Shown in pieces: positions 5,101 to 18,075 of a stretch of DNA of 64,000 nucleotides. The DNA comes from Cyanobacteriota bacterium (GTDB lineage Bacteria > Cyanobacteriota > Cyanobacteriia > PCC-6307 > Cyanobiaceae), in NCBI GenBank assembly GCA_046052125.1, contig JBJOMY010000002.1:64001-128000 (forward strand), given 5' to 3'. The notes under the pieces are model-generated. The model was not told where the DNA came from. It ran no database searches and saw only the letters and a program-made list of their open reading frames with translations. Every line of letters starts with the position of its first letter. Position 1 is the first letter of the stretch. A program made the position numbers and the translations under genes.

Positions 5101-5535
5101 TCAGAGCGGAGGAGCGGGAGCGCTGGGCGGTGGGGCCACCGGCGGCAGCGGTGCAGGGTCGCTTGCGGCGGGCAACTGCGGCTTAGCCGGCGGATCGAGC
5201 TGGGGATCGATCGCATCCGAGCGATTGAGGGCGGCCTCTGCTTGCTTGGCCGCCTCGGCCCGCTGTTTGGCTTCCTGCTGCTGTTGGCGCTCGAGTTCCT
5301 GCAGCTCCAGATCACCGCGGATTTCCGCTTCGGCATCGCCAAAGCGCAGCCGCAAGCTCTCCAGGCTTGTGCCAGGGAACACCTGCACGTCAAACCCCGG
5401 ACCGAACCGGATCAGCTCGGTGACGTTGAGGCTGAGCAGGCGCTGGGTGACGCCGTAAGCCACCCCAAAACAGAGGCCCGCCACCAGGGGACCCTTCCAG
5501 ATCTCGCGCAGAGCCGGTTGCGACACCCGTGCCAT
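5101..5535 (-). CDS. Hypothetical membrane-anchored protein with Pro-rich tail
   Basis: ATG at 5535 (MARVSQP...), hydrophobic GPLVAGLCFGVAYGVTQRLL, then FPGTSLESLR and a Pro-rich C-terminus. Confidence 0.7.
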   Translation of the reverse strand: MARVSQPALREIWKGPLVAGLCFGVAYGVTQRLLSLNVTELIRFGPGFDVQVFPGTSLESLRLRFGDAEAEIRGDLELQELERQQQQEAKQRAEAAKQAEAALNRSDAIDPQLDPPAKPQLPAASDPAPLPPVAPPPSAPAPPL

Positions 5536-5704
5536 CCAGCGCCTACCAGGGAATCGAACTCTAAGCAGGGCGAACACAGCGCCCAGCAACCGGCAAACCA
5601 TGCAGCTTCTGCATAAACGCGCAGATCCCTTGACCTAACCGTGAACAACACAGACCACAGCCAACCGGAGCACCTACGGTCCAAGGGAGCTGCCGGAGCG
5701 GGTT

Positions 5705-6598
5705 GTGATCTCGGTGGATGGCCTGGCCGCCCTCGATCACCTCATCTGGTTGCGCACCGGTCAGCGCGCGGCAGAGGCGCTCGCTTGCACGCAGCCCACC
5801 GTGAGCCGCAACAGCCGCAAGTGCCTGGATGTGTTCGAACTGGAGCTGGAACGCAGCCGCGGCGAATGGCGACTTCTGGGTGACACCCAGCTGATCAAGC
5901 TTGAGCGCCTTGTGCATCAAAAGCAGCGCTGGGCCCGCAATCTCACACTGCGGCTTGAAGCGCAGCACTGGTCGGCGCCTGGGCTGGATGGACTTGAGCT
6001 GGCGAACTGGCAGCGCGGCAACTTCAACCAACTCGAGTACGAACAGCCGCTCGCGTTGCTCGAAGACGGAGTGATCGATGCCTGGATCTGCTCCGCTCCC
6101 GATGCTCCAGTGCGGCCAGGCCTCACGGGCCTACGCCTCACCACCATGCCGATGCACCTGATGGTGCCCCGCGGCCATCCCCTGGCCGAACGACGCAGCC
6201 CCATCGCCTGGGAGGAGTTGCTGCCTTATCCGGTGCTACCGCTGCCAAGCGGCAGCTTCCCGATCTTTGAAGCGGTGCTGCAGCGCTGCAGCTTGCTGCC
6301 GTGCCCTGAGCGCACTCAAGCCATCAAGGCCTCCGGCTGGTACGGGCAGAGACCCACCGAAGCGATGCTGATCGCCTACTCCTCACCGCTCACGCTGCAG
6401 CTCTATGGCGACGCCTGGGTGCGACTGCCCCAGAAGCTGCCGGTGGAGGTGGGCGATGTGTTGATGGTGCGCGAGGAGTTCAGCGATCACCCACGCACGC
6501 AACAACTGCTGCGCAAGCTTCTCGATCATCTGGCCGAGCTGGCTGCGCCCCACAGCGATGTGATGGTGCATCATGCACCGGCGGCTTACGTCGTGTAA
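5705..6598 (+). CDS. LysR-family transcriptional regulator
   Basis: N-terminal HTH RAAEALACTQPTVSR; substrate-binding-like LLEDGVIDAWI and LMVPRGHPLA; 297 aa. Confidence 0.85.
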   Translation: MISVDGLAALDHLIWLRTGQRAAEALACTQPTVSRNSRKCLDVFELELERSRGEWRLLGDTQLIKLERLVHQKQRWARNLTLRLEAQHWSAPGLDGLELANWQRGNFNQLEYEQPLALLEDGVIDAWICSAPDAPVRPGLTGLRLTTMPMHLMVPRGHPLAERRSPIAWEELLPYPVLPLPSGSFPIFEAVLQRCSLLPCPERTQAIKASGWYGQRPTEAMLIAYSSPLTLQLYGDAWVRLPQKLPVEVGDVLMVREEFSDHPRTQQLLRKLLDHLAELAAPHSDVMVHHAPAAYVV

Positions 6599-6605
6599 TC
6601 GGCGT
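6585..6605. repeat. Left copy of 21-bp direct repeat CTTACGTCGTGTAATCGGCGT (putative att core)
   Basis: Identical to 18076-18096. Confidence 0.93.
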
Positions 6606-6754
6606 CTTGCTCGCCCATCCCTCTGCGCCTGCCGCTGCAGAGCTTTGATGGCTTTACGGATCTCAGCGGCATAGTACCAACCGCTTCTGGACCACTGCTT
6701 GAGGATCCACCCACCTCACTGGAGGCAATTGGTCCTCTGATGTCAGGTCAGTGC

Positions 6755-7054
6755 TCAGTAGTTGTCCCCGTACTTGAGTCCAGAGGCGGCATCCATCAGT
6801 TCCACCGTGGTCTGATGCCCCTGCGCCACAGTCACCTCGTGCTGGATGCCGATGTCCCGCAGTGCCTTGATGTCGAACTCAGGCGCGGTGATCCAACTGA
6901 AACCCTTACCAAAGGTGTTGTCGGGATTCACCACATACCAATGGCAGGCAGTGTCGGGGACGGCGACAGAGCATTTGGTCCAGTCGTTATCCCACTGAGG
7001 CACCTGAACGAAGGAGAGGGCGGCGAATAGGAAACCAAACAGACTGGAGAACAT
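6755..7054 (-). CDS. Small exported hypothetical protein with a Cys pair
   Basis: Hydrophobic N-terminus MFSSLFGFLFAALSFVQVPQW; C-x8-C-HWY motif; 99 aa. Confidence 0.75.
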   Translation of the reverse strand: MFSSLFGFLFAALSFVQVPQWDNDWTKCSVAVPDTACHWYVVNPDNTFGKGFSWITAPEFDIKALRDIGIQHEVTVAQGHQTTVELMDAASGLKYGDNY

Positions 7055-7255
7055 GCCGCTTTTACATTTCTCAATATCCTAGGCGGTATCTGGGTTTTCC
7101 TTCGCCAATGGGTTGAACGGGCGTGTATCGGGCATCCCGATTTGCTTCCTCAGGATGGTTCTTTTGAGGGCGTCCCTGGAAGCATTGCCTGAGCGGTAAC
7201 TGCAGTGTCTGGCACTGGATTCTGGCTTGAGGACACTCGATGTACTGTGCGCTTG

Positions 7256-7497
7256 ATGGCAAAGCAAGTCCGTCTGACCCTCGCCAAGGCAAATCTGCGC
7301 CGTGCTGAGGCAGGGGAGAAATCCATCACCATGAACTCGTTGGCGACTCAGGCAGGGGTGGCGGCAACAACCATCACTCGCTTGGCAAGAACCGACGACA
7401 AGGCGGCATCAGCACTGTCACTAGACCTGGCATCCAAGATTGGACGGTGCTGGATTGTGAGATTGAAGATCTTCTGGAAGTAGTGGTAGCGGATTAG
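7256..7497 (+). pseudogene. Cro/C1 (Xre, HTH_26-like) regulator with an apparent 1-bp frameshift near 7441
   Basis: MAKQVRLTL...SITMNSLATQAGVAATTITRLAR HTH. The family-typical tail TVLDCEIEDLLEVVVAD* lies in another frame and ends at TAG 7495-7497. Confidence 0.75.
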
Positions 7498-8414
7498 TTC
7501 TCCAACTCCAGGAAGAAATCCTCATCCATTCTCCGGATCACGAATGTCTGCTTTGTTGAAACGCCGATGCCGTGTTTGAGCATCAGTTCAGACATTCTCT
7601 TACCATCAACAAGAATGATTCTGCGGTCAGTCAGTGTCTTGACGTATTCCTGGGCGGGTTGAGCAAATGTCGAGGTGGTCATAATCACACCTTTGGAAGC
7701 ACCAACCCCTGCAAGCGCACCCACAAAACCTTGAATAACGGGTCTCCCAACTGACCCCTCCCATCGCTTTGCCTGGATATAAATGCGATCAAGACCAAGG
7801 TGATCTTGGTTTACGACGCCATCGACGCCACCATCTGCACCACGGGCAACGCCTTGAACGTCTTCCATTGACCCGCCATATCCCATACCAACAAGCAGGC
7901 GCAACACCAACTGCTCAAATCCCTCAGGGGGCAACTGCTTGACTCGATCCAAGACCTCATCTTGAAGTTCACGTTGGATTCGCCTCACGCCCTTCTCAAT
8001 CTGTTCTTCTGGTGTCAGATCATCATCAATATCGCCTGATTCAATCAGATCTTGCTTGCCATTTCTGGTAGTCGAGATGAAGTCATTGAACTGCTCGTAA
8101 GACCGAAGGAACTCAGCGTCGATTGCGGCAGGCGGATTTGAGAGTAGATCTTTGCCGCTTTGACTGATGACATAAGTTGCTCGACGTGGGCGTTCGATCA
8201 ATCCTGCCTTAAACAGATAGGTTCGTGCCCACCCCATTCGATTATCAAAGGCAGTTTGTGTTCCACTGGGCAGGCGTTGACTCAACGCTTCAGCGCTCAG
8301 ACCAAGGTGATCTGCGACGGCATCCCGCATCTGATTGGTTGTGAGTTCGCTGCCACCACCCATCACCTTGAGGAGAGGAAGCATCAGAGTGTGATATTGA
8401 GGAATGCTGTTCAT
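7494..8414 (-). CDS. mrr: Mrr-family (type IV) restriction endonuclease
   Basis: Mrr_N (IPQYHTLMLPLL...FDNRMGWARTYLFKAGLIE) plus catalytic FEQLVLRLL..MGY, DGGVDG, IYIQAKRW; ATGA overlap with hsdR. Confidence 0.93.
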   Translation of the reverse strand: MNSIPQYHTLMLPLLKVMGGGSELTTNQMRDAVADHLGLSAEALSQRLPSGTQTAFDNRMGWARTYLFKAGLIERPRRATYVISQSGKDLLSNPPAAIDAEFLRSYEQFNDFISTTRNGKQDLIESGDIDDDLTPEEQIEKGVRRIQRELQDEVLDRVKQLPPEGFEQLVLRLLVGMGYGGSMEDVQGVARGADGGVDGVVNQDHLGLDRIYIQAKRWEGSVGRPVIQGFVGALAGVGASKGVIMTTSTFAQPAQEYVKTLTDRRIILVDGKRMSELMLKHGIGVSTKQTFVIRRMDEDFFLELEN

Positions 8415-11400
8415 TCGCCGACGCCTCCCAACTGACCGCCCATATTGCTTGTAAGTGCATGAGCGACAACCGCCTGAATCTTCTTGCCAAGATCCTCTCT
8501 CGACCACTCCTCAGAAATCATCTCGGTCTGCTGGAGCACCAACTCAATCGCTGCTGCTTCCTGATCAGGCGGATACTTGTAGCGTTTGAGCAGTGCCTTG
8601 ATCATCGTTCGCAGTCGTGCCCGAACGTTTTCCTTGTATTGCCAGTCGATGCTGAGGTTGCCTCTGAGTTTTTCTGCCAGTTCCCTTGCCATCTTCATCA
8701 GCACCTCATCACCCATCAGATCGTGTGCTGACTGGTTGTTCGCCAGGGCGTCGTAGAAGGCGACTTCGGCAACCGACAATCCCATTGCTTCGACTTTCTC
8801 CGCCTCATCACGGAACTGCTTTGCCATGGCAATCAGTTCCTCGATCACTTGTGCCGCCTCGATGGAGCGGTTGGCGTATTTGTTGAGAGACGCCTGGAGC
8901 AGTTCGCTGAACCGCTTCTGCTTGACCACGTTGGTCTTGAAGCGTGTCTGAACTTCCTCTGCCAGCAACCTCTGGAGCAGTTCAACCGCCAAGTTCTTCT
9001 GAGGGATCTTGCTGACTTCTGCCAGGAACTGATCCGACAGGATGCTGATGTCTGGTTTTTCAAGACCTGCCACCTTGAAGACATCAGTGATTCCATCTGC
9101 CACCAATGACTCAGAGAGCAGTTGGCGCAACTGAAAATCAACATTTTTAGGAGCAGATCCGTCGCCCCCTGCGTCATCGCCTTTGACTAGTGGTGCTCGG
9201 ATCGCCTGAAGGAAGGTCACCTCATCATTCAGTGCCATCGCTTCATCAGTCGTGCCGCACAAAGCAAATGCCTTAGTCATCGCCAGCACGGTGTCGCAAT
9301 ATCGCTTCTTCCCATCGGGCATCGCCAGGATGTGATCCAGGCAGTTGGGCAGCAGTGCCATTGCTGTCTTGGGATCCCTGAATCCACTCCAGTCGATGGG
9401 ATGCAGGAGGTCATGGGCAACCCGGAGTTTCTCCTTGAGGATCCTCAGCGCCTCACTGTTATCGATGGTGGGAGCACCCTTGCCCTTGGCAGCAGTGTAG
9501 GTCGCCAGTGCTTCTTTGAGTTGGGGGGCGATGCCGATGTAATCGACCACCAGACCGCCTGGTTTGTCTTTGAACACCCTGTTCACTCGGGCAATCGCCT
9601 GCGCCAGGTTTGCCCCCTTCATCGGTTTATCCACATACATCGTCGCCATACAGGGAGCGTCAAACCCCGTCAACCACATATCCCGCACCAGCACGATCTT
9701 GAGAGGATCAGCGGGATCCTTGAACCGTTTCTCCAGATCCTTCTTCTGCTGCTTGCTGGTGTGGTGAGGTTGGAGGTGGGATTCGTCTGATGCCGATGCC
9801 GTCATCACCACCTTGATGGCACCCTTCAAATGGTCGTCGTCGTGCCAGTTAGGGCGTAGGGCAACGATGGCGTCATAGAGGCGAGCACAGATATCCCTGC
9901 TCATCGCCACCACCATCGCTTTGCCTGGTTGGGTGCGTGAGCGTTGCTCGTAATGGGCAACCAGATCCGCTGCCACTTGCTTCAGGCGTGGTTCAGCACC
10001 CACGAGTGCTTCCAGTGCTGCCCACCTGCTCTTTGCCCGCTCAGCAGCAGGGATGTCGTCTTCATCAGCGAACAGGTCATCGACCTGTTCATCCACCTGC
10101 GGCAGCAGCGGTTCTTTGAGCGCCAGTTTTGCCAGGCGTGACTCGTAGTAGATCGGCACCGTGGCACCGTCTTCCACTGCCTGCTGGATGTCGTAGACGG
10201 AGACGTAGTGCCCGAAGACCGCCTGGGTGTCACGGTCGTCTTGGGAGATGGGCGTTCCCGTGAAGGCAAGGAAGGTCGCCTGGGGTAGAGCATCCCGCAA
10301 CGCCTTTGCTAACCCGTATTTGATCTCCCCTGTCTTGGTGTCGAAGCGACCCTTGAACCCGTATTGGGTGCGGTGTGCCTCGTCGCAGATCACCACGATG
10401 TTGTGGCGTTCGGTCAGGGCAGGGAACTTGTCTTCATCAGGTTCGGTAGCGAACTTCTGAATGGTGGTGAAGATGATGCCGCCACTGGGTCGGTTGGCGA
10501 GCAGATCCCTGAGTTCCTGGCGACTCTCTGCCTGCTTGGGGGATTCGCCCAGCAGGTCACCCGCCCCAGCAAAGACCCCGAACAGTTGCCCATCCAGGTC
10601 TTGACGGTCGGTGACCATCACCAGGGTGGGGTTCTCCAGGCGTGGATCGGTAAGCAACTTGCCCGCCAGACACGCCATCTCGATGCTCTTGCCAGCGCCC
10701 TGGGTGTGCCAGACCACCCCACCCTTCTTGTCACCATCAGGTCTGCTTGCTTCCACCACCCGCTCCACTGCTGCCCTGACGGCGTGGAACTGGTGGTAAG
10801 CAGCGATCTTCTTGATGATCTGCCCGTCTTCCTCAAACAGGCAGAAGGAGCGCACGAACTCCAGCAGTCGCCCCTGATCGAAGATGCCCCGCACCAGGGT
10901 CTCCAGATCACGGTGAGCACCCAGCGGATCGAGGTGGTTCTCGCCGTCGATGGTGCGCCAACGTTGGAACCGCTCCCGATCAGCACTCAGCGACCCCAAC
11001 CGTGCCTGGATACCATCGCTGATCACCAGCAGCACATTGGGCGTGAACAGGTCGGGGATGTCTTGCTTATAGGTCTGGAGTTGGTTGAACGCTGCCCAGA
11101 TGTCTGCCTTCTCATCGGCAGGGTTCTTCAGTTCGATCACCGCCAGCGGCAGACCGTTCACGTAGATCACGACATCAGGGCGGCGGTTGTGTTTGGTGCC
11201 CTGGATCGCCAACTGGTTCACCACCAACCAATCGTTGGAAGCAGGGTCATCGAATCCGATCACCTTGAGACGGATGCCCACCTGCTGGTTCCCATCCATA
11301 TAGGTGATGGGTAAACCCTGGGTCATCCAACGGTGGAAGTTGCGGTTGGATGCCAGCAGACCAGGCACGTTGGGGTTCGCCAGTTGGAGCACCGCTGATT

Positions 11401-11602
11401 CGATGGTGCTTGCTGGAACTTCAGGGTTGAGGCGTTGGAGTGCTGAGCGCAGACGCCCCGTGAGGATGACTTGCCTGAAGTCAGTGCGTTCTGGTGAGGC
11501 GCCGTCGCTGTCGAGTTGGGGCGCGAAGACGTGGGTGTATCCCAGTTCCTGGAACCACTCAAGGCACTGCTGCTCCAGATGGTCTTCTGTGATCAAGGCC
11601 AT
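8411..11602 (-). CDS. hsdR: Type I restriction enzyme R subunit
   Basis: PD-(D/E)xK motif RRPDVVIYVNGLPLAVIELKN; WHTQGAGKS; DEAHR; FTGTP; MWLTGFDAP; QAIARVNR. Confidence 0.97.
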   Translation of the reverse strand: MALITEDHLEQQCLEWFQELGYTHVFAPQLDSDGASPERTDFRQVILTGRLRSALQRLNPEVPASTIESAVLQLANPNVPGLLASNRNFHRWMTQGLPITYMDGNQQVGIRLKVIGFDDPASNDWLVVNQLAIQGTKHNRRPDVVIYVNGLPLAVIELKNPADEKADIWAAFNQLQTYKQDIPDLFTPNVLLVISDGIQARLGSLSADRERFQRWRTIDGENHLDPLGAHRDLETLVRGIFDQGRLLEFVRSFCLFEEDGQIIKKIAAYHQFHAVRAAVERVVEASRPDGDKKGGVVWHTQGAGKSIEMACLAGKLLTDPRLENPTLVMVTDRQDLDGQLFGVFAGAGDLLGESPKQAESRQELRDLLANRPSGGIIFTTIQKFATEPDEDKFPALTERHNIVVICDEAHRTQYGFKGRFDTKTGEIKYGLAKALRDALPQATFLAFTGTPISQDDRDTQAVFGHYVSVYDIQQAVEDGATVPIYYESRLAKLALKEPLLPQVDEQVDDLFADEDDIPAAERAKSRWAALEALVGAEPRLKQVAADLVAHYEQRSRTQPGKAMVVAMSRDICARLYDAIVALRPNWHDDDHLKGAIKVVMTASASDESHLQPHHTSKQQKKDLEKRFKDPADPLKIVLVRDMWLTGFDAPCMATMYVDKPMKGANLAQAIARVNRVFKDKPGGLVVDYIGIAPQLKEALATYTAAKGKGAPTIDNSEALRILKEKLRVAHDLLHPIDWSGFRDPKTAMALLPNCLDHILAMPDGKKRYCDTVLAMTKAFALCGTTDEAMALNDEVTFLQAIRAPLVKGDDAGGDGSAPKNVDFQLRQLLSESLVADGITDVFKVAGLEKPDISILSDQFLAEVSKIPQKNLAVELLQRLLAEEVQTRFKTNVVKQKRFSELLQASLNKYANRSIEAAQVIEELIAMAKQFRDEAEKVEAMGLSVAEVAFYDALANNQSAHDLMGDEVLMKMARELAEKLRGNLSIDWQYKENVRARLRTMIKALLKRYKYPPDQEAAAIELVLQQTEMISEEWSREDLGKKIQAVVAHALTSNMGGQLGGVGE

Positions 11603-11788
11603 GGGGTGAAGCCAGAGATTTTGCCAGTGGTCGATGGCTTGGCCCTGCCTCTTGCCACCTGCCACGCGGAGAGGCCAGACGAGCCTGGGATGCCTGGCTC
11701 AGGGAAAGCCTTAAATACGAGACCGACTGGGGCCCAGGCGGTTTGGGGGATTGGGCGGCGGCGGCGGTGGGTTGCCATTAAAAAGGCC

Positions 11789-13198
11789 TCATGCCCAGAA
11801 AGGGAGGTAGCGGGCGAACTTCCGTGAGGCGCCGACGCTGCCGTCCGGCTTGATCAGATTGGCCTCAATGGTGGCTGAAATGACCTGGGACGTCACGGCG
11901 GCCTTCTCCTCTCCAAGCCGAAATCGCTCTCTAAGCGTCTGATTAGACATCCGCTCGCCCATCACCCACCGGAGAGCGCAGTGTTGATAACAGGCTCGAA
12001 CCCGGTTGTTCCGGTCCATTTGGTCAAATGGAAGGGGGCCGAAGATCGTGACAATCGTGCGGCGGAAACCTGCGTGAAAATCTGGAGCAGGGAGTTGATA
12101 CACCTCAGCGGCATCAACCACCCGATCAATACCGCTGCTCTTCTCCTCGCAGATGCCGAAGCGACGCATCAGATCAGCAAGATGTTCATTGCGAGATTGA
12201 TAGCCATCGATGAAGCGCTCTACAGGCACAAGGGGTTCGCCCGGATTGGAGATCTCAACGCGATTGGCGAAGATGTCGATCATGACAGAAGCCCCAGCGA
12301 CAACGAAGTCCTGATGAATTAGGGCATTGGCCAAAAGCTCACGAATCACAACATCTGGAACGAGCTTAACCTCTTTGCGCAAGGCGCGCTCAATGATTTC
12401 ATTCTGCGGCAGTTGTGCATAGATGTAGTTCACAAATTCCTGAAAGCCAACGGCGTAACCGCGATCAAAAACGTGATCCAGCTTTGTTTGCAACTTGGAT
12501 GGCCCTGAGTAGACGACAACGCGCGCAGCTTTACGTGATAGATCAGGGAAATCACTCAGTCGGCGAGCCAGTAAAAGCGCACCAAGACGTCGAATGGTGT
12601 AGCTGCTGCCTTCATAATCGACAAGCTTTTCTGCCGTGAGCCTGTCAAGAACGCCTACGCGATCTGTGGGATAGGGCAACCGCAGAAGCTCAAAAAAGGT
12701 TTGTGTATCGAGCAGCTCTACAACCTCCTGAGCATCCAGACCTCGTCGGGAAGGCTCTTCGAGCCAATCAGGTTGACCTTCAGAAAAAATGCGCCTCAGC
12801 TGGTCTTCGCTCATCGGCACCAACGCTTCGCCTGCGCGCATCAAATATTTGCCTTCCAGGTTGTAAGCCGTTCCGCGGGGACGTGATGGAATGTGAAAAA
12901 CAAGAACACGTCCATCTGGATGAACAACGGCCTCGATATCGACTCTGAATCCAACGGCCTTGAACAGTTTTTCTGCTGCTGCAACCGTGTCTGGGAAGGC
13001 TTGAGTGCTGACAACCTGGCGTGGAGGTTCATCTGCGATTCCAAGAAGAAGCACACCGCCACCCTCATTGGCCAGGGCCACGCAGTATTCATTCAGTTTG
13101 CGCGTGTCAAACTGATGCTTCGCTTCCTTGAATTCCAACCGTTGGTGCTCAGAGGCCGCTTGCCGCCAGAGATCAATCTGCTGTGGGGTCGTGCTCAT
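11789..13198 (-). CDS. Schlafen/AlbA_2-domain protein with HATPase_c_4 (RecG-C-like) region and C-terminal HTH
   Basis: N-terminal EHQRLEFKE...ALANEGGGVLLLGIAD; central RELLANALIHQDF...VEISNPG...SRNEHLADLMRRFGICEEKSSGI; C-terminal MSNQTLRERF. Confidence 0.85.
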   Translation of the reverse strand: MSTTPQQIDLWRQAASEHQRLEFKEAKHQFDTRKLNEYCVALANEGGGVLLLGIADEPPRQVVSTQAFPDTVAAAEKLFKAVGFRVDIEAVVHPDGRVLVFHIPSRPRGTAYNLEGKYLMRAGEALVPMSEDQLRRIFSEGQPDWLEEPSRRGLDAQEVVELLDTQTFFELLRLPYPTDRVGVLDRLTAEKLVDYEGSSYTIRRLGALLLARRLSDFPDLSRKAARVVVYSGPSKLQTKLDHVFDRGYAVGFQEFVNYIYAQLPQNEIIERALRKEVKLVPDVVIRELLANALIHQDFVVAGASVMIDIFANRVEISNPGEPLVPVERFIDGYQSRNEHLADLMRRFGICEEKSSGIDRVVDAAEVYQLPAPDFHAGFRRTIVTIFGPLPFDQMDRNNRVRACYQHCALRWVMGERMSNQTLRERFRLGEEKAAVTSQVISATIEANLIKPDGSVGASRKFARYLPFWA

Positions 13199-14499
13199 GA
13201 CAGCATCCCCTCAAGCATCTTCTCGGCATCAGGGATTCGGATTTGACCTGAGATGAGTTTGGAAAGGAGGGTATCCCTGGTTGTTGCGAGATCTTTGGAT
13301 TGCTTCCGTAAACCAAAGACTCGATCCAGAAGAGGGGCAAATGCTGAATCCATCGCAGCAAGAAGAGATGGTGTGGGGATCAGCGCCTTAGCCTCACTTA
13401 GATGATGCCTTTGGATGTGCCCCATCGTTGTCGCTTTCCCCTGGGCGATTTCCTGAAACTCAGGCAGATGGTGCTTGACCCACTGAAGGAAGAACCACTT
13501 GTCGTAGGTCTTGGATGTGACCTTGAAGAGGTGCTGGTTCAGAGCACCATCACCTCCACACCACATATCAACAGCAAGAGAACCAGACCAGGAGAACAAC
13601 ACATCACCATCCCTAACTACATAGTCGGATGGAACTGCTGTCGAGCACCTGTCTGCCCCAATGGAATCGCCCTTCTTTAGTTGAGCGATCTTGATCACTG
13701 GAAGCGTTGGGTTGCCGTCTTCAGGCGGGAACTTCTGTAGGGCAAGACCATTGAGGAAATGAGCGACCTCATCCAATGACTTCACTTTCCACCCACTAGG
13801 AATCTCGCCGTGTTCCGAATCCTCAAATGAATCTTGGAACAGGTCGCTGATTTCTGCTGGCAATCCAGTAGGGCGACCTTCTGCCTTCGCTCTGACTGGA
13901 TCGAAATCCACAAACCACGACTTGAAGAGCGCCTTTGCCATCGCCTCCAAGGTTTCGTTGGTCTTGCGGTTCAGTTCGATCTTGTCATCAAGGGTGCCGA
14001 GGATATGAGCGATTGCTTTCTGTTCATTGAAGGGTGGCAAGTCAATCTCAACCTGCTTCAGTTCCCTGACTGAAAGGTTGCCCTGAACGGAACCATTATC
14101 CAGTTCTCTGGCAATGGTCTTCCCAGTTGATCCGCTCAGGATGTAATAAAGAAAATCACGGGATACGTTTTGCTTTGGTCGAATGATGACAAGAGACGAT
14201 GCTATCGCCCCTTTCTGAATGCCCTTCGCAAGACCGATCTTTCCAAGAGATCCACGAAGGCAAAACAAGATATCGCCCTTCTCAATCTTTCCATTACCAA
14301 GCCGATCGTATGCCCCTTGCGAAATAAAGGTTGCCCCCGACAGGTCTATGCGCCTACCGTCAAGGTCAGAGGCGCTGACAAACGGTATTCCGCTGGCGAC
14401 ATAATCAGAAGAGGATGGGTAGTTCTTCCCCCTGTCGCCATTGATGAAATCAGCAGCGTTGTCGAGAGTAGAAGTCGACCAACTAAAATCAGAACTCAT
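13195..14499 (-). CDS. hsdS: Type I restriction-modification specificity subunit
   Basis: Two TRDs separated by conserved [43 protein letters not shown] and IPSGW; C-terminal [11 protein letters not shown]. Confidence 0.96.
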
Positions 14500-16375
14500 A
14501 TCCCAACCTCCTCAGATTCTCGGCAATCTGCTGATCCAACTTCGCCCCCTCTTCCTGCTGCTGCTTGAGCAGAGCAGTGAGGCGCTTCATCTTCTGATCA
14601 AAGGGTTCGTCGTCGTCATCCTGATCTGCCGCTCCCACATAGCGACCAGGTGTGAGCACAAAACCATTCTTCTCAATCTCATCTAACTTGGCGCTGTAGC
14701 AGAATCCAGCAACATCCTCATAGACATCAGATACCTCGCCATCACCACGCCAGGCGTGAACAGCACCAGCAATCTTCTCAATATCCTCATCCGTTAGCAC
14801 CCGTTCAACCCTGGTCTTCATCGTGCCCATCTGACGGGCATCAATAAAAAGCGTCTCTCCACGACGATCACGACCACGCAGGGTCTTGTCATTCGTCAAG
14901 AACCACAAGCAAACAGGAATCTGAGTGTTGAGGAACAGTTGACCAGGCAGTGCCACCATCACCTCAACCACATCACCACGCACCATCGCTTCACGGATCT
15001 GCCCCTCACCGCTCTGGTTGGAACTCATCGATCCATTTGCCAGCACTACACCTGCTTCACCACCAGGGCGTAGTTTCCAGAGCATATGTTGCAACCACGC
15101 ATAGTTCGCATTGCCTACAGGTGGTCGCCCGTAGACCCAGCGTGGATCACTTTCGTATTTCTCCCCGCCCCAATCCGAAATGTTGAACGGTGGATTAGCA
15201 AGGATGTAGTCGAACTTCTGATCAGGGAACTGATCTCTGGCAAAGGTGTCAGCAGGTTCCTGACCCAGATCCGCAGCAAACCCACGGATCGCCAGGTTCA
15301 TCGCTGCCAACCTCCAGGTGGTTGGGTTGCTCTCCTGCCCATAGATCGAAGCGTCATCACGCTTGCCCCCGTGCGCCTGGATGAACTTTTCGCTTTGAAC
15401 GAACATTCCACCTGAACCGCAGCAGGGGTCATAGATCCGACCCTTGTGCGGTGCCAGCACAGCAACCAGCGTTTTGACGACGTGAGCAGGCGTATAGAAC
15501 TGACCTCCCTTCTTGCCTTCTGCGCTGGCGAACTGACCGAGGAAATATTCGTAGACCTCCCCCAGCACATCACCCGAACGCTGGTCGTCAGCAAATCCAA
15601 TGGTGGAAATCAGATCTACCAGTTCACCCAGACGCCCTGGTTCCAGTTGAGCGGCACCAAACCGCTTATCCAACTTGCCCCGCAGGGTCGGGTTCTCGTT
15701 CTCGATGGCGACCAGTGCCCGATCAATCAGTTGACCGATATCAGGTTGCTTTGCCCGTGCCCGTAGCGACTCCCAGCGAGCATCAGCAGGCACCCAAAAC
15801 ACGTTCTCTTGGGTGTAGTAGTCACGATCCTCCAGTGCTGCTTCGTGATCGGCAGGGTCATCACCGATGTAGAAGTCAGAGTCAGGCGAACTGACCATTG
15901 CCAGCACCTTCGCCCGATGCTCGGCAAACGTGTCTGAGATGTATTTCAGGAAGATCAGACCCAGAACCAGATGCTTGTATTCCGCCGCATCCATCTGGGC
16001 ACGGAGTTTGTCGGCGCTCGCCCAGAGAACTGCCTTGAAATCCTTGGCGGGTGCTTCCTTCTTCGCTCGACCTCGACCGTTACCTGCTGCTGGTGCTGAG
16101 GGTGCCTCGTAGCGACTGCCGCCAGGGATCCCATCTGCCAACCCAATGGCACCCCCACGCCCCCGACCCTTGCGGATTATTCCCAGGGCAAGCGCCTTTT
16201 CCTTGACTGCCTCGTACTCCTCTTCGCTGATCTGGCGCTCTGCTGCTCGACTCAGCGCCTCCCGTGCCGACTGGTTCCCGATGGTGCTGCCATCAGGGGG
16301 GAGCACCTCCAGGAGCAGGTCACTCAGTTCTGCTTCCCCTGCGTCGGGTGTGGTGAAAGTCGCTGAGTCGGTCAC
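14489..16375 (-). CDS. hsdM: Type I R-M N6-adenine methyltransferase with an ~110-aa N-terminal extension
   Basis: [26 protein letters not shown] (motif I), ANPPF (motif IV); GTG start, exact start uncertain. Confidence 0.96.
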
Positions 16376-16493
16376 TGGGACTGGATGCTTCCGCCCATTT
16401 TCGCCGCTGCGCCTTGGTTTTGCCCGTTATGCGCTATTCGCATAGACCAACGGCGCCTGTGGTGGGAACTCTGAGAGCAGTCGCACTGATCCG

Positions 16494-16712
16494 ATGACCA
16501 CACTCACCACTGGTGCCCTGGCAACCGAGACCCTGATCGCCTCGCTCCTTGCCCTGGAAGACCTGACCAACCGCCTGACGGTGCTAACCCTCAATGCCTC
16601 TGGATGCCCTGAGCAATCCCCCAGGGTGCGGGCGCTGCTGGCAGACCTGGCGGATGCCCTGAAGCGATGTGAGGAGGATCTGGGGACCTATGCCGCAGCA
16701 AACGACACCTGA
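16494..16712 (+). CDS. Small helical hypothetical protein
   Basis: 72-aa ATG ORF, Leu-rich amphipathic, divergent from hsdM. Confidence 0.5.
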   Translation: MTTLTTGALATETLIASLLALEDLTNRLTVLTLNASGCPEQSPRVRALLADLADALKRCEEDLGTYAAANDT

Positions 16713-16716
16713 CGGT

Positions 16717-16971
16717 TCAACGCCTCTCGGTGATGGGTTCCCATTCCGCCTTAATCCCGATGTCGGGTGCTCCTGACTCTTTGTTGGTCTTCTCCATCCA
16801 CTGTGACCTCACGATCCTGTGCCCCTTAAGCACCTGCCGCATTCCTGCTGGTGCTTTGGCGGCGGCGCAGGAGGTGCCACCGTCCCTACAGGCGCTGGAT
16901 GCTGAGCGGTCCCTCTTGCTCCCACACCCCGCCAGCAGCAGCACCCCAAGGAACAGGGCAACCCGCTTCAT
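16717..16971 (-). CDS. Small putative lipoprotein
   Basis: MKRVALFLGVLLLAGC signal peptide with LAGC lipobox; ATGA overlap with the upstream gene. Confidence 0.7.
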   Translation of the reverse strand: MKRVALFLGVLLLAGCGSKRDRSASSACRDGGTSCAAAKAPAGMRQVLKGHRIVRSQWMEKTNKESGAPDIGIKAEWEPITERR

Positions 16972-17150
16972 CGCTTGTGAGCAGTCTTTGCCCAGATCCG
17001 CTCCAGGGTCTTGCGGAACTCGCCCTCGCTCAAGGGTCGTGCCAGATCTCGCTTCCTGACGGTGCTCCAGATCCACCAGACCTGAAGACCGCCAAAGGCA
17101 AGGGCGAACAGACCCAGTTGGAGGTACCCAGAGTTCAGATGCTCCATCAC
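16968..17150 (-). CDS. Single-TM micro-protein (LERIWAK motif)
   Basis: LQLGLFALAFGGLQVWWIW TM segment, then FRKTLERIWAK; coupled to both neighbours. Confidence 0.7.
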   Translation of the reverse strand: MMEHLNSGYLQLGLFALAFGGLQVWWIWSTVRKRDLARPLSEGEFRKTLERIWAKTAHKR

Positions 17151-17323
17151 GCCGTCTGCTGGTCCTTTGCCCAGATCCGTTCCAAGGACTGCCTGACCTG
17201 ATCGGTTCTGGAGGTAGCGCCCAGCACTCGCTTGCGGAACAGGGTGGTCAGGCGCCAGAACTTGACTCCAGCAGCAAGGGCAAAGACCGCCCAGGGCACC
17301 AGCATCCAGAGCGGGTTGCTCAT
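17147..17323 (-). CDS. Single-TM micro-protein (LERIWAK motif)
   Basis: MSNPLWMLVPWAVFALAAGVKFW TM segment, then VRQSLERIWAK; ATGA overlap upstream. Confidence 0.7.
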   Translation of the reverse strand: MSNPLWMLVPWAVFALAAGVKFWRLTTLFRKRVLGATSRTDQVRQSLERIWAKDQQTA

Positions 17324-17535
17324 CCCCTGTTCAACGCCCACCGCAGTGCCCCCAGACCGATCGAGAGTCCCACCATCGTGTTCCAGGCGATTGCCCTGCG
17401 GGTGCTGAGGCGCAGCAGGAAGGGCGGCAGGGTCTGATGGCGACTCAGCAGCAGGGCGGTGCTGATCAGGAGGTAGGCAGCGGGGATGCCCAGTGCCAGC
17501 AACAACTCAGTCGTCACAGCGGGGTCTGCTGCCAC
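17320..17535 (-). CDS. Two-TM micro-protein
   Basis: LLLALGIPAAYLLISTALLL and IAWNTMVGLSIGLGAL hydrophobic segments; start uncertain. Confidence 0.6.
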   Translation of the reverse strand: MAADPAVTTELLLALGIPAAYLLISTALLLSRHQTLPPFLLRLSTRRAIAWNTMVGLSIGLGALRWALNRG

Positions 17536-17605
17536 TGGTGAAACGGTAGTGACGCTCCAGGGAGGCGCCCGATCGGAACCCTTGACCCCACCACCGCACC
17601 ACAGG

Positions 17606-17620
17606 TAGTACAGGTGTACC
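17606..17620. promoter_or_regulatory. Cyanobacterial LexA (SOS) box overlapping a putative -10; TTGACC -35 at 17582-17587
   Basis: TAGTACAGGTGTACC matches RGTAC-N3-DGTWCB and AGTACA-N2-TGTAC; 12 bp upstream of ATG 17633. Confidence 0.75.
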
Positions 17621-17632
17621 CGCCCGCCTCAG

Positions 17633-17899
17633 ATGCCTGCTGCTCGTCCCGTCGCCTCTGGCGCCCCTGCTGAAGAGTGGGACTACCTGGATGTGGATGT
17701 CCTTCGCCCTGCCCGTTCAGGTGCCGTCTGTATCACCTGCCAGCACTTCCGTTACGAGGTCGGCAGGCACTGCGTCACGGTGCTGACCTGCCCGATCCAT
17801 CAGGGTCTTATCCCCCAGGGTGAGCACCTGACTAAGCGGTGCGCTCAGTGGGTTGCTCGGCGGGAGGTGGCGGTTGGGTGGCGCCCTGAGACGGGGTGA
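17633..17899 (+). CDS. Small Cys/His-rich putative metal-binding protein
   Basis: CITCQHF...HC...TCPIHQGLIPQGEHLTKRC; 88 aa. Confidence 0.75.
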   Translation: MPAARPVASGAPAEEWDYLDVDVLRPARSGAVCITCQHFRYEVGRHCVTVLTCPIHQGLIPQGEHLTKRCAQWVARREVAVGWRPETG

Positions 17900-17908
17900 A
17901 ACCGCTTT

Positions 17909-18031
17909 GCTTACGGAGAAATCATTTGCCCCGCAATGGGTTTGCGGGAATGACCTCGACCTGAACGTAAGCACTACCCTGATCGACACTGGGTTTTACG
18001 TCTGTCTTCTCCGTAAGCGTTGCGTAAGCGT
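17909..18031. repeat. CGTAAG(C) motif array with 12-bp inverted repeat (putative recombinase arm-type sites)
   Basis: GCTTACGGAGAA (17909-17920) and TTCTCCGTAAGC (18007-18018) are exact inverted copies; CGTAAGC at 17966; tandem CGTAAGCGT at 18012 and 18023. Confidence 0.7.
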
Positions 18032-18075
18032 CGATCTAAGGTCCCCCAGATCCCTTGCGGCAGAACGGGTTTGCC

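Follow-up and report, generated by a model that had tools for sequence, protein, structure and literature searches.

What does a Schlafen-type protein do inside a type I restriction-modification (R-M) operon, in the very position that the gene for the anticodon nuclease PrrC occupies in EcoprrI? The question is raised by a 64,000-nucleotide stretch of a Cyanobacteriota bacterium (assembly GCA_046052125.1, contig JBJOMY010000002.1), here called the window, in which the minus strand bears five open reading frames (ORFs) in tandem, in the order hsdM-hsdS-X-hsdR-mrr (Table 1). A first-pass annotation of the window had described this gene order with its coordinates, the ATGA overlap of hsdS and X, and the prrC-like placement of X between hsdS and hsdR; all of these proved correct. 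Our reading, to which we assign a probability of roughly 0.55, is that X is a self-contained, horizontally mobile accessory defence cassette made up of a Schlafen RNase, a GHKL ATPase and a winged helix. Proteins of this kind are already known, their class having been described in 2025-2026, and a link to R-M systems is in print; X is a new member. New here is a pair of repeats linked to the X gene, which provides one new testable lead.

The domains of X were identified by Pfam searches, which placed SLFN_AlbA_2 (PF04326) at residues 17-129 (E 1.3e-11, 45.5 bits against a gathering cut-off of 25.3) and HATPase_c_4 (PF13749) at residues 302-384 (E 8.6e-20). The peptides EHQRLEFKE, ALANEGGG and GIAD, from which a Schlafen/AlbA_2 N-terminus with intact acidic residues and a HATPase_c_4-like region had been proposed, are all present, and the Pfam matches and the catalytic motif bear that proposal out. 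The motif, E-x4-(E/D)-x-K as defined in PMC13056530, is intact as E17-HQRL-E22-F-K24, and in a phmmer alignment to the rat SLFN13 and SLFN11 chains E17/E22/K24 and D56 fall on the E-x4-E-x-K and Asp positions. Among 42 orthologues, with a mean column identity of 81%, E17, E22, K24, N44-E45-G46-G47-G48, E287, N291 and G320 are invariant and D56 nearly so. No NCBIfam model matched X, and PADLOC gave it a weak Argonaute-associated match and nothing else.

The AlphaFold model of X (pLDDT 84) was compared with known structures by Foldseek. The best whole-chain match was 3lmm, the DIP2311 protein of Corynebacterium diphtheriae. The N-terminal domains of SLFN11, SLFN13, SLFN14 and SLFN5 were matched at E 1e-4 to 1e-2, the nuclease lobe being found in 7fex (E 1.5e-4), 5yd0 (E 6e-4) and 7zel (E 9e-4); the SAMD9 tRNase domain (E 0.015) and histidine-kinase CA domains were matched as well. 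The helix-turn-helix (HTH) domain that the first-pass annotation had also listed stood in part. Pfam gave no match to the C-terminal 83 residues or to the middle domain, even at E 5, whereas the last 75 or so residues are modelled as three helices and a two-strand wing. When this tail was modelled alone (pLDDT 71.6), the top-ranking PDB entries, all weak matches, were sequence-specific DNA-binding winged helices: FtsK gamma, BrxR, IscR, TrpR and MarR. We infer from the model and these weak matches that the C-terminal domain is winged-helix-like.

With PF04326 followed by PF13749 in one chain and an HTH-like tail, X belongs to the "HisKinase-HTH" class of prokaryotic Schlafens (pSlfn), also known as the "Schlatpase" supradomain with HTH; it shares with that class the AlbA_2 domain bearing E-x4-(E/D)-x-K, the PF13749 GHKL domain and the C-terminal HTH. 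Perez Taboada et al. (bioRxiv 2025; Nat Microbiol 2026; PMC13056530) classified 5,930 pSlfn proteins, of which 34.0% were HisKinase fusions and 19.2% HisKinase-HTH fusions, and found 69.6% of pSlfn within 10 kb of a defence gene; one of their proteins, RorSlfn5, acts as a tRNase in abortive infection. Kuzmenko et al. (bioRxiv 10.64898/2026.05.29.728809) gave the SLFN plus PF13749 arrangement its name "Schlatpase", a term that a full-text literature search returned from this preprint only, and reported it in 60,692 of 103,533 SLFN proteins, with more than 90% of C-terminal tails being HTH. The Cash paper (PMC13462974) described Schlafens with ATPase and DNA-binding domains (cluster 7) as tightly tied to BREX, R-M and type I CRISPR systems, noted that more than half of defence-linked homologues adjoin R-M or other nucleases, and called the activation mechanism of these proteins undefined. 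A survey of BREX loci (PMC12839542) found Schlafen-histidine-kinase-wHTH genes beside BREX in at least 1017 taxa and termed them back-up suicidal effectors. X also resembles its class in its association with defence islands and R-M genes (PMC13462974, PMC12839542). The statement in the first-pass annotation that the function is untested is outdated for the family, as prokaryotic Schlafens have been shown to be anti-phage tRNases (PMC13056530; 10.64898/2026.05.29.728809; PMC13462974) and their R-M link is published. For the HisKinase-HTH class, the parts of this literature used here contain no demonstration of the signal sensed, of the HTH target or of defence. A tRNase or abortive-infection role, as first proposed for X, is the best guess by homology.

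How often X occurs in hsd operons had been set as a test of that proposal. A scan of one genome per species yielded 270 relatives of X, and the loci studied were the best 80 of these, 62-98% identical to X and drawn from more than 12 phyla plus one archaeal metagenome-assembled genome. Neighbouring genes were surveyed by tblastn of the 80 loci with the five window proteins, and the 45 loci without a clear match were examined by Pfam on up to two ORFs each side of X (156 ORFs). Four short loci (L035, L071, L074 and L075; 1.9-3.3 kb) were excluded, and two ambiguous ones (L003 and L054) were left unclassified. X lies in a type I operon in 36 of the 76 loci examined, so the enrichment of its orthologues in type I operons is real. 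The 36 consist of 29 where window-like hsd genes adjoin X on its own strand, and seven that belong to other type I families, in which X takes other positions (L044, L049, L050, L056, L062, L067 and L080). hsdS was upstream and hsdR downstream of X in 23 loci, and X directly followed hsdS in about 10 of the 29 window-like operons. In L041 (6046-8706) X is intact and the flanking hsdM, hsdS and hsdR are present only as short fragments, so that the Schlafen passenger has outlasted the R-M operon that decayed around it. The L080 operon (5484-11557) encodes HsdM, X, a second HsdM, and a second, more distant Schlafen-GHKL protein with a tail matching Pfam Fic-like_C, a duplicated methylase-Schlafen module.

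X orthologues are also found in other settings. They lie beside SNF2/PLD helicases and Eco57I-type methylases (L013, L014, L061), near a divergent HsdM-Mrr pair (L023), and next to a DUF4011 helicase-nuclease (L022), Fic plus a large methylase (L007), HEPN/MNT genes (L045) or a TOTE primase (L046). In at least 14 loci, including L005, L016, L024-L026, L028, L037, L051, L053, L058, L066, L069 and L073, the annotated neighbours are of housekeeping type only. These standalone orthologues are 66-80% identical to X, their catalytic residues are all invariant, and no R-M genes were seen within 5-7 kb on either side. Four IMG/VR contigs predicted to be viral or proviral (L246-L249) likewise carry X orthologues of 70-75% identity without hsd genes.

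Stop/start overlaps (ATGA or TGATG) between X and an upstream ORF of at least 300 codons were present in 16 of the 76 loci with a readable start, and the upstream gene so coupled varies by locus, being HsdS, HsdM, SIR2_2 or an SNF2/PLD helicase. X is also not the only gene found between hsdM, hsdS and hsdR in these type I operons. RhuM/Fic, MNT nucleotidyltransferases, AAA_21 ATPases, ORF6N, DUF6119, YhcG nucleases, SIR2_2, Abi_C, AAA_14-DUF4143 and DUF3644 are inserted there as well. With so many other genes inserted in the same operons, the slot appears to be a general cargo site and X one interchangeable passenger. The standalone orthologues, the varying upstream partner and the other cargo in the same slots together suggest that X may well be an abortive-infection tRNase, complete in itself, that is carried along by the operon.

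Alignment of the spacers between X and hsdR revealed two copies of a motif with the consensus cTTATTTAAGcG...CC. In full it is a bipartite direct repeat with the consensus TTATTTAAG (TTATTTAAGcG), whose copies lie 66-68 nucleotides (nt) apart after X in R-M-embedded and standalone loci alike. Regardless of context, 64 of the 80 loci have a strict 7-mer at the offset of copy 2, and 46 have it at both offsets; loci lacking the strict 7-mer mostly carry variant repeats. The motif does not recur elsewhere within the loci. A cyanobacterial homologue of X with 55% identity has the same layout with a variant motif, and the four viral or proviral contigs have kept copy 2, copy 1 being degenerate. The spacer between the repeats measures 59-61 nt in most of 63 loci, and its sequence is not conserved. 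Before copy 2 there is a block, ATCAAnnnnTTG, which by eye may be IHF-like and which is missing in the cyanobacterial copies. Reading the conserved block as a sigma-70 promoter was dropped since the hexamer spacing does not fit. An interpretation of the 3' element as a structured RNA or as type III antitoxin-like repeats was also rejected: RNAalifold predicted 0 pairs, the mean z-score of the spacers was -0.12 (63 sequences), and there was no Rfam match, leaving neither a consensus structure nor a stability signal nor an RNA family.

The two copies vary together. Within a locus they are identical at a mean of 10.97 of 19 positions, against 8.48 +/- 0.28 for shuffled pairs, and 0 of 2000 shuffles attained the observed mean; variants common to both copies include TTTCATCGC, ACTTAAA and TTTAGAYGC. 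Repeat distances among loci also track distances between C-terminal domains (r 0.64), with a partial Mantel correlation of 0.51 (0/2000) compared with 0.13 (189/2000) for the reverse test. We conclude from these comparisons that the repeat pair is probably the cognate site of the X C-terminal domain, or at least a candidate for it. Within the same phylum, 29 hsdR genes that lack an X were examined and the element precedes none of them, and on this ground it was rejected as a native hsdR leader. Following X in nearly every context and missing before these hsdR genes, it belongs to X. The parts of the four publications on the class used here (PMC13056530, 10.64898/2026.05.29.728809, PMC13462974 and PMC12839542) make no mention of such a repeat element. 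As a candidate DNA ligand for the HTH that is defined to the base and comes with natural specificity variants, the pair makes the question of activation directly testable.

A blind pattern scan of metagenomes for the repeat pair gave at least 119 stretches, from which 80 loci with 81 matches were fetched. Among the 81 listed matches, 37 are located 5-9 nt downstream of the C-terminus of an X, some 12 come after the 3' end of a decayed X, and roughly 10 represent tandem repeats, a CRISPR-like array or chance matches in coding sequence. In L133 the element (1652-1728) follows an unrelated AAA_16 ATPase gene (458-1636) rather than X, and its spacer is closely like that of L047; it seems that the element stayed in place and the gene ahead of it was exchanged. 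In an Acinetobacter locus (L032, 8407-8650) the repeat occurs four times, at +9, +74, +165 and +231 after X, as two tandem elements; its neighbours are YqaJ and a gene resembling a recombination directionality factor. In two metagenomic loci (L111 and L153) a short stub that reads like an hsdR start (MTLIHESDIEE...) lies upstream of the element and stops right where copy 1 is reached.

The position of X recalls PrrC, and the comparison holds in part. In both loci an accessory RNase gene, predicted as such for X, sits inside a type I operon, and the expected outcome, again predicted for X, is tRNA cleavage as a back-up to restriction. The two proteins themselves are unrelated: PrrC consists of an ABC-type NTPase and a C-terminal HEPN anticodon nuclease (PMC3710099), whereas X is a Schlafen, GHKL and winged-helix protein in which Pfam detects neither an ABC-type NTPase nor a HEPN domain, and X has orthologues outside R-M operons. 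A further protein to compare is RzAgo, the SLFN-pAgo of Runella zeae, which shares the Schlafen and GHKL ATPase module. Its activation, as described in 10.64898/2026.05.29.728809, proceeds from ATP binding to tetramerisation, rebuilding of the Schlafen nuclease and tRNA cleavage. E314 and N318 of RzAgo coordinate Mg-ATP, and E287 and N291 of X have the same four-residue spacing, a likeness of spacing and not of alignment. In RzAgo, sensing falls to an Argonaute core with guide RNA, where X has a winged helix of about 75 residues. DIP2311 has the same domain order as X (Foldseek E 3e-21; sequence E 5e-7), but the two are only 14-17% identical, and DIP2311 is a structural-genomics protein without assigned function.

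On the cassette reading, X would be made together with HsdS from the hsdMS transcript and translated in step with hsdS. Its nuclease would cut tRNA and stop translation in infected cells once restriction has failed, thereby aborting the infection. The winged helix may bind the two repeats beside its own gene, as their co-variation suggests, and this binding could set the expression of X itself or of hsdR, or could keep X latent. The type I system, the Schlafen and Mrr form a layered island in which each layer probably works on its own. A dependence of X on HsdMSR resembling that of PrrC is possible, and in view of the standalone orthologues we do not favour it.

Several observations weigh against X as an independent passenger or against the role given to its tail. 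X lies directly before hsdR in about 22 of the 29 window-like operons, a steadier placement than chance insertion of cargo would suggest. The fold matches of the tail are weak, none being significant (best E 0.13), and come from a model of modest pLDDT. The Mantel r climbs with closeness to the repeats, from 0.30 for the SLFN domain through 0.37 for the middle domain and 0.42 for GHKL to 0.64 for the HTH, and block-wise recombination could yield such a gradient without any binding. A Schlatpase that is either joined to a type I S subunit or, in Poribacteria operons, has a gene of its own is reported in 10.64898/2026.05.29.728809, and the fusion argues for physical coupling in some lineages. 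Finally, when seven pSlfn genes of four architectures, HisKinase included, were tested alone, the only defenders were the DUF262 and Ig-like types (PMC13056530); since the HisKinase class was not among them, it may require a partner or a trigger that was missing.

The last two of these points also speak for a PrrC-like guard, in which contact with HsdS, HsdM or HsdR holds X latent and X is set free to cut tRNA once the type I enzyme has been disabled by a phage anti-restriction protein such as Ocr, ArdA or a Stp-like peptide. This is the role that the first-pass annotation had in mind, and the translational coupling of X to hsdS in the prrC slot is consistent with it, as is the presence of X in type I operons of several families among the 36 loci. 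We consider such a guard unlikely, as in the catalytically intact standalone orthologues latency cannot depend on HsdMSR, the upstream gene coupled to X varies, the slot holds many unrelated cargo genes, and X has no similarity to the ATPase or HEPN domains of PrrC. A quite different role, that of a DNA-binding regulator, would fit the placement of X before hsdR. Bound to the repeats, the winged helix would set hsdR transcription or translation and so delay or limit restriction, and the Schlafen and ATPase domains would be sensor or oligomerisation modules and not a toxin. Here 36 nt separate copy 2 from the hsdR start, and in many loci it stands 7-12 nt ahead of the start codon of the following gene. 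The two repeats vary together and follow the C-terminal domain in their divergence, and the best of the weak fold matches are sequence-specific DNA binders that include the BREX regulator BrxR. Yet standalone loci retain the element even if the gene that comes next is unrelated or lies on the opposite strand, so hsdR cannot be its general target. Moreover, a pure regulator would not need the invariant E17/E22/K24 and E287/N291 or the nearly invariant D56, and a scan of the operon for promoters and terminators yielded a lower number of sites than shuffled sequences did, with no site between X and hsdR. We therefore judge regulation as the main role of X to be improbable.

The repeats might also not bind a protein at all, being instead a recombination or insertion site by which the X cassette moves, or an element that acts as RNA, for instance as an antitoxin or a processing signal would. 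X is found in more than 12 phyla, its orthologues being 62-98% identical and their stop/start junctions precise, which would suit a mobile unit, as would the two tandem elements of L032, the L133 element with its L047-like spacer behind an AAA_16 ATPase gene, and the persistence of solo elements and of elements after decayed X genes. On the other hand, no recombinase is a constant neighbour and no repeat copy lies upstream of X, while the folding results given above speak against an RNA element. A function of either kind seems very unlikely. A bolder combination of these ideas is that the winged helix of this class, the commonest among bacterial Schlafens, binds a cognate repeat pair that travels with the gene, and that DNA occupancy is the switch: X would stay latent on its own locus until released by DNA-mimic anti-restriction proteins or by host DNA damage, with ATP-driven assembly and tRNA cleavage to follow. 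We regard this combination as speculative and improbable as a whole. If it were true, X would be an anti-anti-restriction sentinel that need not touch HsdMSR, as the DNA mimics concerned also disable type I R-M and BREX; this would explain both the enrichment in R-M and BREX operons and the ability of the gene to live alone.

The features of the operon and of its island are listed in Table 1.

Table 1. Features of the R-M operon and its island, with positions in the window
Feature	Position	Strand	Basis
Strain-specific island, variable hotspot between LysR-type gene region and argJ	7487..17160	.	GC content and comparison with relatives
mrr, type IV methyl-directed endonuclease	7494..8414 (likely start; listed ORF 7494-8507)	-	Pfam Mrr_N + Mrr_cat; PADLOC mREase_IV E 2e-78
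hsdR, restriction/translocase subunit	8411..11665	-	Pfam HSDR_N, SWI2_SNF2, T1R_D3-like, T1RH-like_C; PADLOC REase_I 1156 bits; TIGR00348 E 2e-180
X-linked repeat copy 2 (CGTATTTAAGGCTTTCCC)	11702..11719	-	67 nt after copy 1, 36 nt before hsdR start
X-linked repeat copy 1 (CCTTTTTAATGGCAACCC)	11769..11786	-	2 nt past X stop codon
X, Schlafen/AlbA_2 + linker + GHKL ATPase + C-terminal winged-helix-like domain (modelled), 469 amino acids	11789..13198	-	
ATGA stop/start overlap hsdS/X (GCTGTCATGAGCACG)	13195..13198	-	Read from sequence
hsdS, specificity subunit	13195..14499	-	Pfam Methylase_S, two stretches; PADLOC Specificity_I E 2e-113
hsdM, type I methyltransferase	14489..16375	-	Pfam N6_Mtase E 3e-104 + HsdM_N; PADLOC MTase_I E 2e-189; NPPF motif in translation

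The four restriction genes are complete, with Pfam, PADLOC and NCBIfam in agreement. The type I enzyme has a full HsdM, an HsdS with two target-recognition domains, and an HsdR with nuclease, motor and C-terminal domains. A PADLOC run had been proposed by the first-pass annotation, and it recovered all four restriction genes (MTase_I, Specificity_I, REase_I and mREase_IV), leaving only X without a firm call. hsdS shares 11 nt with hsdM and 4 nt with X, and 123 non-coding bases separate X from hsdR. In HsdM, residues 1-110 (16046-16375) form an N-terminal extension, a helical part followed by a Gly/Arg/Ala-rich linker, to which Pfam gave no domain match, so the hsdM start codon is uncertain. 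HsdM genes of 777-797 amino acids were observed in L050 and L056.

Mrr has the two domains of a type IV enzyme, Mrr_N and an Mrr_cat match covering positions 2-115 of 115 (E 2e-33). The listed GTG start of mrr at 8507 falls 97 nt inside hsdR. Mrr_N spans residues 38-123 of this long ORF, and Met32 corresponds to an ATG at 8414-8412 that overlaps the hsdR stop codon (8413-8411) as a second ATGA. The true start is probably this ATG, and its position together with the beginning of Mrr_N makes it most likely that mrr is coupled in translation to hsdR. Mrr had been proposed as a further layer of the system. It is instead a private addition of this island and not a conserved layer: tblastn found a window-like mrr after hsdR in none of the other X loci, with only a 28% match in L056.

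The operon lies among housekeeping genes (enolase, ABC1 kinase, a LysR-type gene, argJ, coaE and gatB) in a genome of 2.64 Mb in 10 contigs, 99.96% complete, that has one AlbA_2 gene. GC content is 0.50-0.56 across most of 7-16 kb and 0.59-0.61 at 10-12 kb, compared with 0.62-0.70 in the flanks. X was not found in 23 of 24 genomes of the same genus, and the remaining one has a match of 26% identity. The site itself (window 6606-18075) was compared in three relatives, G436, G008 and G007 (L243-L245). G436 has an empty site, with position 6605 joined directly to 18076; in G008 the homology breaks off at 7486 and picks up again at 17982; and in G007 it ends at 7484, gives way to 2.4 kb of different DNA and returns at 17164. 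These junctions and the dip in GC content indicate that the operon is carried on a strain-specific insert of about 9.7 kb at a variable hotspot. Here a freshwater picocyanobacterium has recently acquired three layers, type I, type IV and Schlafen, in one compact island. No tRNA genes were found within the window, Pfam detected no domain in the ORFs bordering the island, and a search of 7000-17500 for direct and inverted repeats returned short, chance-like families only, with no hsdR or hsdS stub. At 16968-17341, on the minus strand, there are two adjacent, paralogous small ORFs of 60 and 64 amino acids, each with a hydrophobic stretch and a common "...LERIWAK" tail. The pair gives rise to a 35-nt direct repeat, D3 (16986-17020 and 17165-17199), and one of the two ORFs is partly conserved in G007.

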